From Octopus vulgaris (taxonomy: Eukaryota): a stretch of DNA of 64,000 bases. The translations under genes and the position numbers were made by a program. The stretch covers positions 28,520,001 through 28,584,000 of the forward strand of contig OX597814.1 in the NCBI GenBank assembly GCA_951406725.2, given 5' to 3'. Positions 5,385 to 48,591 of this stretch are shown one piece after another. The notes under the pieces were generated by a model. That model saw only the letters and a program-made list of their open reading frames with translations. It ran no database searches and had not been told where the DNA came from. How positions within the stretch are numbered: the stretch's first letter is position 1; each line of letters begins with the position of its first letter.

Positions 5385-5945
5385 CACCGGGAAAATGCTT
5401 AGCGGTATTTCGTCTGCCGTTACGTTCTGAGTTCAAATTCCGCCGAGGTCGACTTTGCCTTTCATCCTTTCGGGGTCGATAAATCAAGTACCAGTTACGC
5501 ACTGGGGTCGATGTAATCAACTTAATCCGTTTGTCTGTCCTTGTTTGTCCTCTCTGTGTTTAGCCCCTTGTGGGTAGTAAAGATATAGGTATTTCGTCTG
5601 CTGCTACGTTGTGAGTTCAAATTCCGCGAGGTCGACTTTGCCTTTCATCCTTTCGGGGTCGATTAAATAAGTACCAGTTACGCACTGGGGTCGATATAAT
5701 CGACTTGATCCGTTTGTCTGTCCTTGTTTGTCCTCTCTGTGTTTAACCCCTTGTGGGTAGTAGTAAAGAAATAGGTATTTTGTTCGTCTTTACTTTCTGA
5801 GTTCAAATTCCGCTGCAGTCGACTTTGCCTGCTATTCTCTCGCGGATCGATAAAATACTTACCAGTTGAGCACTAAATTCGGTGTAATTGACTTACATAC
5901 CCTCTCCACAAAATTACTGGCCTTGTGCCAAATTTGAAATCAATA
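5385..5945 (+). mobile_element. SINE family B, tandem trimer
   Basis: Three head-to-tail units with gagttcaaattccgc B-box and the gtcgactttgcctttcatcctttcggggtcgat central domain. Confidence 0.88.
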
Positions 5946-18196: not shown

Positions 18197-18598
18197 CTAA
18201 CAGTATCGCCCGGCGTTGCTCGGGTTTGTGAGGGACATAACTATATAAGCATTTTAAGAGAGTTATTGCCAAAAAATAGCAAAAAAATGCATTAAAAATG
18301 GAAAAAAAATTATGGTAAATTTTTTTTAAATCGTTGACTCATCGTAGACATTTTTAGAGAGTTACTTCCCTTATATAATAGCGAAAAAAATGCATTAAAA
18401 TGGAAAAAAATGATGGTAATTTTTTTTAAAAATCGTAGACTCATCGTAGACGCGCGCTAATACCCAGAAGGGCTCGATATGAATCACGACTATAAGATAC
18501 CCGGTTTTGGTTAAACTGCACCGCAAAATGTGGGAGTAGTTAGGAATCTAAGTCGTAGGAGACAGACAGACACACAACCTCTCTTTTATATATAAAGA
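18197..18598 (-). mobile_element. Non-autonomous Helitron, subtype B
   Basis: 5' TC, 3' TTAG variant preceded by cccg-agcaacgc-cggg hairpin, inserted at A|T with no TSD. Confidence 0.88.
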
Positions 18599-19099: not shown

Positions 19100-19635
19100 G
19101 AGTGAGAGAGCAGTTGATGCCATCAAAGTGACACTGGGGTAAAATATACGAAGCCCAATATACCCATCATGACTACCCGTCTGATAAGAGTACACCAGGC
19201 ACATGCATCACAACCATATGTGCGCGACATGGTGATCTCATATCAAGATAAACAGCACATGACCTTGCAGGTGGGGCCCAGTTAGAATTTTCTTCAGGTT
19301 GAGTAGCCCATCCCGCTCAAAAGGTCCCTGAATAAGGATTGTTTAAGGATGTTGAAAGAACCACCCATGTTTCCAGAGGTGAATTATTCAAACCCCAAAG
19401 AATCCCTCTCAACACATGGCTATGATGCTCTCCCACTACTTCTGCTCGTGATCAGAGATGCACATATCGTCAGCCACTAAGGGACATGCTCAACTGGTTA
19501 AGGTCAAGCAACTGACAAGCAAATCTGTGGTATTGAGCAGAATATTTGCTGTAGCCCATCTTTTATACCAAGACAAAACAATGTACATGATAACACTTCC
19601 AATCAATTAAGATCAGAAGCCATGAGAGCCACTGC
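19099..19635 (-). mobile_element. Unclassified element lodged in (AAT)n, probable retroposon
   Basis: About 540 bp of complex sequence bounded by trinucleotide tracts on both sides; no ORF; orientation inferred from the tail. Confidence 0.45.
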
Positions 19636-19840
19636 AGCCATGAGAGCCATCAGAAGCCATGAGAGCCATTAGAAGCCATGAGAGCCATCAGAAGCAATGA
19701 GAGCCATTAGAAGCCGTGAGAGCCAACAGAAGCCATCAGAGCCATCAGAAGCCATGAGAGCCATCAGAAGCCATGAGAGCCATCAGAAGCCATGAGAGCC
19801 ATTAGAAGCCATGAGAGCCATCAGAAGCCATGAGAGCCAT
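19613..19840. repeat. 19-bp minisatellite (catcagaagccatgagagc), about 11 copies
   Basis: Direct observation. Confidence 0.93.
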
Positions 19841-23240: not shown

Positions 23241-23573
23241 AGGCGTGGCTGTTTGGTAAGAAGTTTGCTTCCCAACCATATGGTTCCGGGTTCTGTCCCA
23301 CTGTGTGGCACCTTCGGCAATTGTCTTTTCTACTATAGTTTCGGGCCGACTAAAGCCTTGTGAGTGGATTTGGCAGACGGAAACTGAAAGAAGCCCGTCG
23401 TGTGTATATATACAGGAGTGGCTGTGTGTTAAGTAGCTTGCTAACCAACCACATGGTTCCGGGTTCAGTCCCACTGCGTGGCATCTTGGGCAAGTGTCTT
23501 CTGCTATAGCCCCGGGCCGACCAATGCCTTGTGAGTGGATTTGGTAGACGGAAACTGAAAGAAGCCTGTCGTA

Positions 23574-23618
<45 letters not shown>

Positions 23619-29404: not shown

Positions 29405-29779
29405 CTAGCAGTATCACCCGGCGTTGCTCGGGTTTGTAAGGGAAATAACTATATAAGCAAAAGATAGCAAAAAAATGCATTAAAAATGGAAAAAAAATGA
29501 TGGTAATTTTTTTTAAATCGTTGACTCATCGTAGACATTTTTAGAGAGTTACCTCCCTTATATAATAGCGAAAATTGCATTAAAATGGAAAAAAATGATG
29601 GTAAATTTTTTTTTAAATCGTAGACTCATCGTAGACGCGCGCTAATACCCAGAAGGGCTCGATATGAATCACGACTATAAGATACCCGGTTTTGGTTAAA
29701 CTGCACCGCAAAATGTGGGAGCAGTTAGGAATCTAAATCGTAGGAGACAGACACACAACCTCTCTTTTATATATAAAGA
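29405..29779 (-). mobile_element. Non-autonomous Helitron, subtype B
   Basis: 5' TC, 3' CTAG with hairpin, A|T target. Confidence 0.9.
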
Positions 29780-36204: not shown

Positions 36205-36510
36205 GTGGAGATGCCCTAGTGGTTAGAGCAGCGGACTCGCGGTCGAGGGATCGCGGGTTCGAATCTCAGACCGGGTGTTGTATGTGTTTATGAGCGAAAC
36301 ACCTAAGCGGCTCCAGCGGAAGGTAGTGGCGAACTTCTGCTGACTCTTTCGCCACAACTTACTCTCACTCTTTCCTCCTGCATTTTGTAGCTCACCTGCG
36401 ACCGACCGGCGTCCCGTTCTATGTGGGTAACCTATACGCCAAGGAAACCGGGAAACCGGCTCTATGAGCCCGGCGTGGCTCGAGAAGGAACAAACAACAA
36501 CAACAACAAT
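36205..36510 (+). mobile_element. tRNA-derived SINE (C-like head, D-like 3' end, (AAC)n tail)
   Basis: tagtggttagagcagcggactcgcggtc...ggttcgaatctc; tail aacaacaac. Confidence 0.75.
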
Positions 36511-39342: not shown

Positions 39343-40057
39343 TGTACGTGTGTGTGTATGTGCGTATGCGATTTTGTTTGGGCATATTTGGCTGTATGAG
39401 TTTAATTGTGTGTGTGTTTGTGCGTGTGTGTGTGTGTGCGTTTGTACGTGTGTGTGTGTGTGTGTGTTTGTACGTGTGTGTGTATGTGCGTATGCGATTT
39501 TGTTTGGGCATATTTGGCTGTATGAATTTAATTGTGTGTGTGTGTGTTTGTACGTGTGTGTTTGTACGTGTGTGTGTTTGTGCGCGCGCGCGTGTGTATG
39601 TGTGTGTGTTTGTACGTGTGTGTGTATGTGCGTATGAATTTTGTTTGGGCATATTTGGCTGTATGAGTTTAATTGTATGTGTGTGTGTGTGTGTATTTGT
39701 ACGCGTGTGTGTTTGTGTGTGTGTGTTTGTACGTGTGTGTGTTTGTACGTGTGTGTGTTTGTGCGTATGCGATTTTGTTTGGGCATATTTGGCTGTATGA
39801 GTTTAATTGTGTGTGTGTGTGTGTGTGTTTGTACGTGTGTGTGTTTGTGCGTGTGTGTTTGTACGTGTGTATGTTTGTGTGTGTGTGTGTGTTTGTACGT
39901 GTGTGTGTTTGTGCGTATGTGATTTTGTTTGGGCATATTTGGCTGTATGAGTCTAATTGCGTGTGTGTGTGTGTGTGTTTGTGCGTGTGTGTGTGCGCGT
40001 TTGTACGTGTGTGTGTGTATGCGATTTTGTTTGGGCATATTTGACTGTATGAGTCTA

Positions 40058-40092
<35 letters not shown>

Positions 40093-40130
40093 CTACGTGT
40101 GTGTGTTTGTGTGCGTGTGTGTGTTTGCAT
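39100..40130. repeat. Composite minisatellite: about 40-bp core plus variable (TG)n/tttgtacg spacer, 7 good units
   Basis: Core gcgattttgtttgggcatatttggctgtatgagtttaatt at about 39210, 39369, 39494, 39636, 39769, 39919, 40021. Confidence 0.92.
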
Positions 40131-40519
40131 GTGGCTCTTCGAAAAAAGTACGAAAGTTTAAGCTATAGCAATTATTGGGATTTCTATTCGATCATCTTCA
40201 TTCATGATTCCCAACACAGATTTGAGCAATTAAAAGCGCAAATACACTGACGCTTCGGAGCTTATCATTCTCTCACTCTACCTATATCCTGCATGACGTA
40301 TTGAAGTGATTATTTTCGAAGACATTGCAAAAGAACCACACACACACTCATTATGTTCTCACGTGTGTGCGTCTGTGTATGAATATGAATATATATATAT
40401 ATATGCATATATATATATATGCATATATATATATATATTAGAAGAAATGTATGTTAGAAGAAATTCCTTCTAATATATAATACCTGTACATCATCTCCAA
40501 ACCTTCCAATATATCTTTA

Positions 40520-40857
40520 CTAGCAGTATCGCCCGGCGTTGCTCGGGTTTGTAAGGGAAATAACTATATAAGCATTTTTAGAGAGTTACTTCCCTTATAG
40601 ATGCCAATTCGGGCTTTCTTAGCCATTTCTGTTTTGGTGTCTTCAAGCCATGAAGTCGTTGTTCTAAAAGAACGCTGGTCTCCTTGACAACGCTTTACGA
40701 CGTTGATTTCCTTACACTCCCTTCCCCACAGCTTCACGAGGGAGGGAAGAAGGAGGAGAAGCAAACAGGTGCAGGTGTGACCATTGACGCCAACTCCGCC
40801 GCCATCGACACACGAAAAATTATGCATTAAAATGGAATAAAAAATGATGTTAAATTA
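40520..40857 (-). mobile_element. Non-autonomous Helitron subtype A, 5'-truncated
   Basis: 3' CTAG and hairpin at 40520; contains the subtype-A internal segment. Confidence 0.88.
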
Positions 40858-40863
40858 TATATA

Positions 40864-41369
40864 TCTATATATATAAAACTCTAGTTGTGTGAGTGTCTGT
40901 CCCCTTCGATTTAGATTCCTAACTCATCCCACATTTTGCGGTGCAGTTTAACCAAATTCGGGTATCTTATAGTCGTGATTCATATCGAGCCCGTCTGAGT
41001 ATTAGCGCGCGTCAACGATGAGTCTACGATTTTAAAAATAATTTAACATCATTTTTTATTCCATTTTAATGCATAAAATGCATCGTGTGTCGATGGCGGC
41101 GGAGTTGGCGTCTACGCTCACAGCTGCACCTGTTTGCTTCTCCCCCTTCCCTCCCTCGTGAAGCTGTGGGGAAGGGAGTGTAAAGAAATCAACGTCGTAA
41201 TGCGTTGTGAAGGAAACCAGCGTTCTTTTAGAACAACGACTTCATGGCTTGAAGACACCAAAACAAAAATGGCTAAGAAAGCCCGAATTTATAAGGGTAG
41301 TAACTCTCTAAAAATGCTTATATAGTTATTTCCCTTACAAACCCGAGCAACGCCGGGCGATACTGCTAG
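40864..41369 (+). mobile_element. Helitron array unit 1 (subtype A)
   Basis: A|TC start, cccgagcaacgccggg hairpin, CTAG end. Confidence 0.92.
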
Positions 41370-41755
41370 TCTTTATATATAAAAGTAAGGTTGTGTGCCT
41401 GTCTTCTCCGATTTAGATTCCTAACTACTCCCACATTTTGCGGTGCAGTTTAACCAAAACCGGGTATCTTATAGTCGTGATTCATATCGAGCCCTTCTGG
41501 GTATTAGCGCGCGTCTACGATAAGTCTACGATTTTAAAAATAATTTACCATCATTTTTTCCATTTTAATGCATATTTTTTTAAAGGGAAGTAACTCTCTA
41601 AAAATGTCTACGATGAGTCAACGATTTAAAAAAAATTTACCATAATTTTTGTTCCATTTTAATGCATTTTTTGCTATTTTTTGGCTATAACTCTCTAAAA
41701 ATGCTTTATAGTTATTTCCCTTACAAACCCGAGCAACGCCGGGCGATACTGCTAG
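41370..41755 (+). mobile_element. Helitron array unit 2 (subtype B)
   Basis: Exact CTAG|TC junction. Confidence 0.92.
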
Positions 41756-42251
41756 TCTATATATATAAAACTGTAGTTGTGTGAGTGTCTGTCCCCTTCG
41801 ATTTAGATTCCTAACTACTCCCACATTTTGCGGTGCAGTTTAACCAAATTCGGGTATCTTATAGTCGTGATTCATATCGAGCCCGTCTGGGTATTAGCGC
41901 GCGTCTACGATGAGTCTACGATTTTAAAAATAATTTAACATAATTTTTTATTCCATTTTAATGCATAATTTTTCGTGTGTCGATGGCGGCGGAGTTGGCG
42001 TCCATGGTCACACCTGCACCTGTGTTTGCTTCTCCCCCTTCTTCCCTCCCTCGTGAAGCTGTGGGGAAGGGAGTGTAAGGAAATCAACGTCGTAAAGCGT
42101 TGTCAAGGAGACCAACGTTCTTTTAGAACAACGACTTCATGGCTTGAAGACACCAAAACAAAAATGGCTAAGAAAGCCCGAATTGGCATCTAAAAATGCT
42201 TATATAGTTATTTCCCTTACAAACCCGAGCAACGCCGGGCGATACTGCTAG
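41756..42251 (+). mobile_element. Helitron array unit 3 (subtype A)
   Basis: Exact CTAG|TC junction. Confidence 0.92.
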
Positions 42252-42536
42252 TATTTATATATAAAAGTAAGGTTGTGTGTCTGTCTCCTACGATTTAGAT
42301 TCCTAACTACTCCCACTTTTTTGCGGTGCAGTTTAACCAAAACCGGGTATCTTATAGTCGTGATTCATATCGAGCCCTTCTGGGTATTAACGCGCGTCTA
42401 CGATGAGTCTACGATTTTAAAAATAATTTACCAGCATTTTTTTCCATTTTTTTGCTATTTTTTGGCTATAACTCTCTAAAAATGCTTTATAGTTATTTCC
42501 CTTACAAACCCGAGCAACGCCGGGCGATACTGCTAG
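42252..42536 (+). mobile_element. Helitron array unit 4 (subtype B, internally deleted)
   Basis: CTAG|TA junction (TC mutated), ends CTAG|T. Confidence 0.9.
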
Positions 42537-42664
42537 TATATATATATATATATATATATATGTGTATGTATGTATATACATACACATGCGTATATACACA
42601 GACACGCACACACAAATACATATGTTATATATGACACACACACACACACACTCCACACACCCAC

Positions 42665-42869
42665 ATTCTTTTATTCTTTTATTTGTTTCAGTCATTTGAC
42701 TGAGGCCATGCTGGAGCACTGCCTTTAGTCGAACAAATCGATCCCGGGATTTATTCTTCGTAAGCCTAGTACTTATTCTATCGGTCTTTTTTTGCCGAAC
42801 CGCTAAGTTTCGGGGGACGTAAACACACACCAGTATCGGTTGTCAAGCGATGGTGAGGGGACAAACACA

Positions 42870-42913
<44 letters not shown>

Positions 42914-42975
42914 TACCACGGGCTTCTATCGGTTTCCGTGTGTACAAAATCCACTCACAAGGCTTTGGGTCGATT
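42665..42975 (-). mobile_element. SINE family A, 5'-truncated
   Basis: Tail and 3' half present. Confidence 0.85.
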
Positions 42976-43023
42976 AGAGATATAAATAAGCAAAGACAGC
43001 GGAAAGGAGATCACTTGAGTGAT

Positions 43024-43055
<32 letters not shown>

Positions 43056-43554
43056 ACACATACACACACACACACACATACGCACACACACACATACGCA
43101 CACACACACAACTGTGTTTGCGTGTGTATCTTCTTCACCGTCTCGTTTCTCTCACAGCCTAAGACACATAGACATAATTACATGGAAAAGAAAACACGAA
43201 CGCAGAGGTTCATTTGCTTTCTAATCCAGGAACTAGTTTCATCAAAATCACAAGAGATTCTCGTGACCTAGTGACCGGTTTTTTTTTAAACGTTTGTTTT
43301 TTCTTTCTTTCATTTTATGTTGTTTTGTTCTTACTTATTTTAATACTTTATTTATTCATTTATTTATTTAGTTATTTATTTCATTGTTATTATCTTTTTT
43401 TATATTGTTTGGTTTCTTTCTTTTTTGTTTTTTTGATATTATTATTTTTGTTTTCATATATTTTTTTGCTTTTTTTTTTTAGTGGTTCGGTCAAACCCAG
43501 CAAGTCACTGCTGAAAAGAAAGACGGGGAACTAAACAAAGACATCAACCAGCGA

Positions 43555-47615: not shown

Positions 47616-47656
<41 letters not shown>

Positions 47657-47688
47657 TCTATACAATATGTTACATTACTCGGTAGTCA

Positions 47689-47751
47689 AGATAAAACTCT
47701 GAGTTTCAGATGCCGAAGTGGAAATCCACAACACCATCTCTTCGGTTATCT
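47689..47751 (-). ncRNA. Type I hammerhead ribozyme motif (left-arm copy)
   Basis: Mirror of 48433-48495. Confidence 0.7.
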
Positions 47752-47935
47752 GGCTATTTGAAAACGTTATGAAAAAATACCGTTAAAAATGAAGGGAAAT
47801 TACTCTGTTATAACTCTGCTTTGCCTGCGTATTTATACATCGCTCGCATTTTTCGTCATAAAAATTATATAAAAATACATAAAAATATATAAAAATATAT
47901 AAAATCTTCTTGGGACATAACACAGAAAGCATGTT

Positions 47936-48091
47936 CTATCCGTTTTCTTTAGGGGACCAAAAACGTAACAGAAATTTAGTCACATGTGGGCATGATCCGA
48001 AAAGCTCTGTCCTTGTATTTAGACATGTGGTAGGGTCTAAGCTGCTTTTCCAGATAAGCCATCTCTCCATGTCGCATAAACCGCACCTTCC
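47936..48091 (-). pseudogene. PLE GIY-YIG endonuclease C-terminus (left arm)
   Basis: GRCGLCDMERWLIWKSSLDPTTCLNTRTELFGSCPHVTKFLLRFWSPKENG*, fitting the CxLCxxE...LNxRxEL...CxHxxKxLL motif. Confidence 0.85.
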
Positions 48092-48094
48092 GTT

Positions 48095-48238
48095 TTATGC
48101 GACATGGAGAGATGGCTTATCTGGAAAAGCAGCTTAGACCCTACCACATGTCTAAATACAAGGACAGAGCTTTTCGGATCATGCCCACATGTGACTAAAT
48201 TTCTGTTACGTTTTTGGTCCCCTAAAGAAAACGGATAG
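48095..48238 (+). pseudogene. PLE GIY-YIG endonuclease C-terminus (right arm)
   Basis: LCDMERWLIW...LNTRTELFGSCPHVTKFLLRFWSPKENG*. Confidence 0.85.
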
Positions 48239-48432
48239 AACATGCTTTCTGTGTTATGTCCCAAGAAGATTTTATATATTTTTATATATTTTTATATATT
48301 TTTATGTATTTTTATATAATTTTTATGACGAAAAATGCGAGCGATGTATAAGTACGCAGGCAAAGCAGAGTTATAACAGAGTAATTTCCCTTCATTTTTA
48401 ACGGTATTTTTTCATAACGTTTTCAAATAGCC

Positions 48433-48495
48433 AGATAACCGAAGAGATGGTGTTGTGGATTTCCACTTCGGCATCTGAAACTCAGAGTTTTATCT
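48433..48495 (+). ncRNA. Type I hammerhead ribozyme motif (right-arm copy)
   Basis: agataa-CCGAAGA-gatg[..gtgg attt ccac..]catc-t-GAAA-ctc a gaG TT-ttatct; stems I, II and III all pair. Confidence 0.72.
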
Positions 48496-48591
48496 TGACT
48501 ACCGAGTAATGTAACATATTGTATAGATAAATTTCCTCTATTTACATAATATTGAGGTCTCTTTCTTTCTTTTGTTATCTTACCGTTTTAT

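Follow-up and report, generated by a model that had tools for sequence, protein, structure and literature searches.

Perfect head-to-tail tandems of Helitrons have reportedly been found in Myotis bats by Pritham and Feschotte, and Helitron arrays in plants are said to have been ascribed by Xiong et al. in 2016 to rolling-circle concatemers. The accessible portions of further reports mention Helitron-1_DPe tandems on the Drosophila Y chromosome and tandems of one Helitron in Xenopus; in this accessible literature, seamless chromosomal CTAG|TC junctions are often cited as evidence for rolling-circle concatemers. That such junctions can arise otherwise was argued earlier for one pair in maize, and is also what the mixed-lineage stack described here indicates. 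Du et al. (2008; PMC2267711) found two different maize Helitrons joined seamlessly at CTAG|TC, and explained them by consecutive insertion at the A|T at the 5' end of the resident element or at the G|T at its 3' end. Tandem dimers of transposable elements which arise by double insertion at a preferred site, and which can seed satellites, are treated in the accessible text of McGurk and Barbash (10.1101/158386), and a review, in its accessible part, cites a preference for insertion sites close to existing Helitrons.

We analysed a 64-kb stretch of octopus DNA (64,000 nucleotides, hereafter the window) containing four Helitrons stacked end to start. As in the maize pair, CTAG is followed directly by TC, the elements are different, and an account by consecutive insertion applies. 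The maize elements are two large gene-fragment-bearing plant Helitrons with presence/absence data across lines, whereas here there are four short animal elements, likely of four lineages, plus an inverted fifth, and the array is known from one assembly. The bat, plant and Drosophila tandems likewise have seamless end-to-start junctions in the chromosome; they are interpreted, however, as one element repeated, or as several 5' ends served by a single 3' end, while in the octopus stack no unit lacks a 3' end and adjacent units differ in lineage. The tandems of McGurk and Barbash, whose accessible text does not treat Helitrons, keep a target-site duplication at their junctions, and the octopus junctions have none. 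Full-text searches that lacked most subscription papers returned no stack of four different Helitron lineages. The octopus stack is the known maize arrangement, lengthened to four units from the two in maize, and there is evidence that its units arose separately. It is less new than first supposed, since the same junction and the same A|T explanation were already available for the maize pair, and what persists is the extension to four lineages. Its value lies in pointing to the question of self-targeting genome-wide, not in a new system.

Identity and abundance of the elements

On the evidence of their sequence, the units are non-autonomous Helitron1-type (HLE1) elements of a very abundant family. 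HLE1 elements are defined, in the accessible parts of PMC11417382 and PMC4778049, by a 5' TC, a 3' hairpin followed by CTAG, insertion between A and T, an AT-rich 3' flank and the absence of coding capacity. The octopus copies resemble them in their TC and CTAG ends, insertion between A and T, AT-rich 3' flanks, absence of coding capacity and lack of terminal inverted repeats, none of which were seen on direct inspection of the copies' ends; a candidate short stem near the 3' end would also fit. A 5' TC begins five of the six copies that have a 5' end, the exception being unit 4 (TA), and CTAG, which conforms to the CTRR of HLE1 elements, ends six of seven, the exception being a solo copy at 18197 (TTAG). 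The array and both solo copies in the window lie between A and T. The flanks read TA|TA at all three loci, which is compatible with TA duplication and TA preference alike; the seamless joins inside the array speak against a target-site duplication. The longest stop-to-stop frame in the window is 282 amino acids.

The subterminal hairpin of unit 1 (41342..41357, + strand) has a 6-bp stem with a bulge and ends 12 nt before the end of the element; identical copies are located at 41728, 42224 and 42509 (+) and at 40532 (-). Its predicted fold (-4.5 kcal/mol) has a z of only -1.0 against shuffles and is weak taken alone. The motif is exact in all seven copies, five in the cluster and two solo, against a chance expectation of 0.04 at up to three mismatches. 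An eighth match at 36469, with two mismatches, was rejected as not being a member of the family.

Public data consisted of contigs of four runs (X1, X19, X2 and X20; organisms coded A, A, B and E) from at most three studies, with 62,120, 53,856, 44,516 and 23,223 contigs, respectively, on the stretch. Many of these depart immediately after CTAG+T into varied AT-rich flanks; the number of contigs and the variety of flanks indicate an abundant mobile family with an exact CTAG 3' boundary, which together with the terminal motifs and A|T flanks upholds the original assignment to the Helitrons. Part of the stretch is present in 23 contig-only runs from nine studies under six coded organism labels. 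The longest contig among those listed is 107 bp, and placement excluded the right flank from 42528, a repeat. No end-to-start joint appears among the 15 of 119 joints listed, and such forms would fall on the reference's own junctions. A pattern scan for relatives gave no matches in metagenome contigs and none in viral contigs; Rfam, applied to 40000-43500, gave 18 sub-threshold matches on or beside microsatellite flanks and none at the gathering score.

Structure of the array

The cluster occupies 40520..42536 and consists, besides an inverted copy, of four head-to-tail units within a (TA)n tract, with zero bases at the joins. Unit 1 (U1, A-type; 40864..41369, +) is 506 bp, runs from TC to CTAG, and has its own 6-bp deletion near the tail. 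Unit 2 (U2, B-type; 41370..41755, +) is 386 bp and carries an internal duplication of about 102 bp. Unit 3 (U3, A-type; 41756..42251, +) is 496 bp with a middle of 50% GC at approximately 41971-42185 and its own 19-bp deletion near the tail, and unit 4 (U4, B-type; 42252..42536, +) is 285 bp, lacks the internal duplication and starts with TA in place of TC. The joins read CTAG|TC, CTAG|TC and CTAG|TA, two of the three being canonical. The 19-letter junction pattern occurs three times in the window against a mean of zero in 100 shuffles, so that the original description of four complete, seamlessly joined units of these lengths holds, as do the private indels noted in them, the deletions in U1 and U3 included, which are real by alignment. 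The common B-type start also attributed to U4 does not hold, this unit beginning TAT and not TCT. Each unit has only a handful of changes of its own, with no gradient across U1 to U4.

Upstream lies a 5'-truncated A-type copy in inverted orientation (40520..40858, -; 339 bp), which extends from A position 175 to its CTAG end, without the first 174 bases, and has a 3' flank beginning TA. This copy had been put at 6 bp upstream of the array; alignment places it at 5 bp, the spacer being ATATA (40859..40863), which is what is left of the (TA)n target on the left side and provides the host A that precedes U1. The right part of the target is a (TA)12 tract (42537..42560) with T first. All three intact outer starts have 5' flanks ending in ATATA and all four outer ends have 3' flanks beginning with TA; the family prefers TA runs for insertion. 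The possibility that the inverted copy has its missing head in the right-hand tract was rejected, there being no matching TC start.

Two solo B-type copies, both between A and T, are located at 18197..18598 (-, 402 bp) and 29405..29779 (-, 375 bp); beyond these and the cluster, a sensitive search of the window gave no further copies. A- and B-type elements have a head of about 205 bp and a tail of about 50-70 bp in common and differ in the middle alone, and are, as judged by this alignment, variants of one family. The internal GC-rich segment ascribed to A is confirmed (50% GC, compared with 35% in the head and 24% in the B middle); the B-type middle contains the AT-rich internal duplication, except in U4. 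The solo copies had been thought to start like U2 and U4, but their heads read ...AAAAGAG and not ...AAAAGT, a different head type.

The last 49 bp (41321-41369 in U1 and the equivalents) are identical in all five copies of the cluster, while both solo copies deviate and a CpG site within this segment varies in 10-24% of family depth in the public-run contigs. This identity may reflect a recent origin of the cluster or homogenisation within it.

Mosaic joints in the public contigs (41783-42277, 41067-41676, 41583-41984 and 41561-41676) connect an A start with a B head (in all four runs), an A head with a B tail, and a B head with an A middle, or give a B form in which the internal duplication is missing. 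The mosaic forms thus combine heads, middles and tails in shuffled fashion, and the division into A and B is a simplification. Loose ends at 41337 and 40552, with 55-64 contigs each in X1, X19 and X2, keep the last 33 or so bases in common and then enter one other sequence, probably a further subfamily with the same terminator. A joint from 41363 to 41481, present in three of the four runs at depths of 2582 (X19), 31 (X1) and 15 (X2), links the 3' end minus its last six bases to internal head position 112, and possibly reflects units truncated at the 5' end that form an array at another place in the genome.

Relationships among the units

U3 differs from the inverted copy by 5 substitutions in 320, and U1 by 17 in 330 (Fisher p=0.015), which would place the inverted copy in the lineage of U3; it was also rejected as an inverted duplicate of its neighbour U1. 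Event counts are not significant (10 for U1 as the odd one against 3 for the inverted copy, p=0.09, and against 4 for U3, p=0.18). Divergence within the U1-U3 pair is 21 of 491 columns and within the U2-U4 pair 8 of 283, with no significant difference between the pairs (p=0.33). U2 and U4 each differ from the solo copies by 4.2-5.5%, more than from each other, and have in common an exact 3' end of 89 bp, the longest exact stretch between any two units, as well as a 1-bp deletion in the tail that none of the other five copies has. A tree of heads and tails leaves the grouping of U2 with U4 unsupported; it omitted the inverted copy, which has no head, and the tail of the solo copy at 29405 aligned poorly owing to its deletion. 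From the window, the question of whether U1 and U3, or U2 and U4, are twins is ambiguous.

The public-run contigs weigh more heavily. In them the states that separate the units are largely lineage variants found family-wide. All values are summed contig depths and not copy numbers, and come from the 40 of 71 difference rows listed. The U1 letter makes up 50/22/51/17% of depth in X1/X19/X2/X20 at 40694 in the inverted copy and 63/36/35/21% at 42007 in U3; at 41890 it reaches 9-16%, and at 41817 1-37%. At 41087, where every 31-letter contig must span a U1-diagnostic site, depth on U1 is 281k/261k/165k/14k, compared with 2.5k/3.8k/10.8k/2.1k at the U4 private site 42318, or 6 to 113 times as much. 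Accordingly the original judgement that the array is not a recent simple duplication is supported. U1 likely belongs to a lineage other than that of U3 and the inverted copy, and U1 and U3 are unlikely to be twins.

For U2, a third letter accounts for 98-99% of a depth of 289k/260k/274k/51k at 41405 (U2 position 36), and this depth is placed on U2 and not U4, which implies an abundant lineage in which one or both of the adjacent changes in the U2 head are present; the U2 head would thus represent a separate, abundant lineage. The states by which U2 and U4 together differ from the solo copies are common, at 70-89% (42268), 21-58% (42269) and 35-49% (41541) of depth. Depth in the U4 tail bin is two to five times that of the U3 tail bin, the U3 tail having its private deletion, an indirect hint that the 1-bp tail deletion of U2 and U4 is common in the family too. 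Single transitions in U2 and U4 reach depths of 128-178k in X1; since sharing at a single site proves little at such depths, most weight is given to states with a high share and to those that involve several sites. Of the 29 substitutions within the pairs U1-U3 and U2-U4, one is a CpG transition, compared with nine among the 40 family-wide variable places listed, which lends weak support to inherited over locally accumulated differences; CpG changes in the solo copies are likewise few (1 of 13), and the low share also fits an unmethylated locus. Taken together, these variants suggest that the four units are likely copies from four separate source lineages.

Origin of the array

We estimate at about 60% the probability that the units were stacked as they inserted one after another at a single bond, likely the A|TC at which the resident element begins. 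Insertion at host A|TC would give host A|new TC...CTAG|TC old, keeping the A|T rule and needing no spacer. Every insertion would remake the same target for the next, the order of arrival being U4, U3, U2 and U1, and the TA-rich head of the family would rebuild a good target each time. A further insertion, independent of these four, would have brought the inverted copy into the same TA tract. The serial insertion into a resident A|TC put forward in the original prediction thus draws support from the lineage differences and the seamless joins. A rolling-circle concatemer calls for units that were identical sisters at insertion, and the units, apart from residual support from U2 and U4, do not appear to have been; the maize-type account calls for neighbours of different origin joined at CTAG|TC, and these are what we find.

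Before any insertion, the (TA)n tract would have offered 14 A|T steps, to which each head would add three to four, giving about 18 local steps. The window contains 1640 ATATA|T sites, against three occupied loci. By an arithmetic estimate, TA preference alone would return an insertion to the same place in about 0.2% of cases, and would do so three times in succession with a probability of about 6e-9. Because repeated insertion at the same bond is so improbable on TA preference alone, we infer a bias toward the resident's start, and the three successive junctions make the locus hint at self-targeting. The bond may be favoured since the RepHel protein would already cut exactly there and join CTAG ends to TC starts. 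According to the accessible text on Helraiser, an element of bats, its transposase cuts between flank and 5' TC in vitro (PMC4778049), and the purified enzyme joins CTAG ends precisely to TC starts, which makes self-targeting biochemically plausible; joining between two different molecules would be an extrapolation from Helraiser. Such targeting may be likened to the origin-to-origin recombination of rolling-circle replicons. It is a doubtful though not negligible proposition that RepHel puts incoming copies precisely at resident A|TC origins throughout the genome, giving mixed-lineage stacks far above TA-target chance and seeding tandem arrays without concatemer replication.

Several observations run against consecutive insertion. 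The equal divergence of the U1-U3 and U2-U4 pairs is what block duplication predicts; U2 and U4 are nearer each other than the solo copies and have the 89-bp end and 1-bp deletion in common; and only two junctions are canonical. The identity of the last 49 bp could reflect local homogenisation or one single event. Growth at the 5' end is opposed by three maize lines which have only the upstream element, pointing to growth at the 3' G|T or to excision (PMC2267711), and a local bias by the accessible data on 701 Helraiser retranspositions, which did not cluster near donor sites (PMC4778049).

Among the alternatives, it is unlikely that mobile A-B dimers, produced by terminator read-through, were stacked as two unrelated pairs (U1-U2 and U3-U4) with the middle junction alone being new. 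This would account for the alternation and for the common tail type of the B units, and Helraiser with a mutated hairpin is documented to read past its 3' end in the accessible text of PMC4778049. It requires, however, two independent dimer lineages, since the A partners and the B partners both differ. Four random draws alternate strictly in 7-12.5% of cases, so the A-B-A-B order needs no special cause, and free ends are common, with 68 contigs in X1 and 65 in X19 departing at 41370 into varied AT-rich flanks. The original suggestion of one A-B heterodimer rolled twice is disfavoured, as it predicts U1 identical to U3 and U2 to U4 when they inserted, yet the separating states are largely family-wide.

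We consider it rather improbable that the array goes back to a single A-B pair, doubled by local duplication or by rolling twice, and then altered by patchy gene conversion from family members. At least three conversions would be required in all. The head of U2 represents a separate lineage by the depths given above, and the lineage-type differences between U1 and U3 extend to the head (positions 62 and 135), a region absent from the inverted copy that could otherwise, being adjacent, have converted U3. What recommends this history is the equal divergence of the two pairs and the closeness of U2 to U4.

It is more improbable still that strands peeled from four different donor loci became linked CTAG-to-TC outside the chromosome and that the resulting circle, a mixed multimer, integrated once at A|T. 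The identical last 49 bp in five copies, together with almost no CpG decay, may indicate one age, and the precise junctions made by purified Helraiser transposase are of the kind needed; but our full-text literature searches found no report of mixed multimers, the words "dimer", "chimeric" and "concatemer" are absent from the main text of the wheat Xuan-Feng paper, which thus lends no support to heterodimer circles of that element, and the separate inverted copy is left without explanation. An assembly artefact, in which reads of different loci were mis-joined through common ends, is very improbable: no junction-spanning piece occurs among the contigs listed, but every unit has private changes, the longest exact stretch between two units is 89 bp, the outer flanks are consistent with one TA tract, and a mis-join via the common tail would itself presuppose reads with genuine CTAG|TC junctions.

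Other features of the window

Positions 47652-48532 form a near-perfect palindrome of about 880 bp, with arm pairs of 253 nt (99%) and 223 nt (98%), the inner arms being 7 nt apart; it is bordered by TA runs and resembles a foldback or MITE-type element of young age. Tandem repeats occur at 5404-5874 (2.5 copies of 183 bp) and 23241-23583 (two copies of 171 bp), both of which we take to be SINE-like. A minisatellite at 19612-19840 comprises 12 copies of a 19-bp unit with 90% matches.
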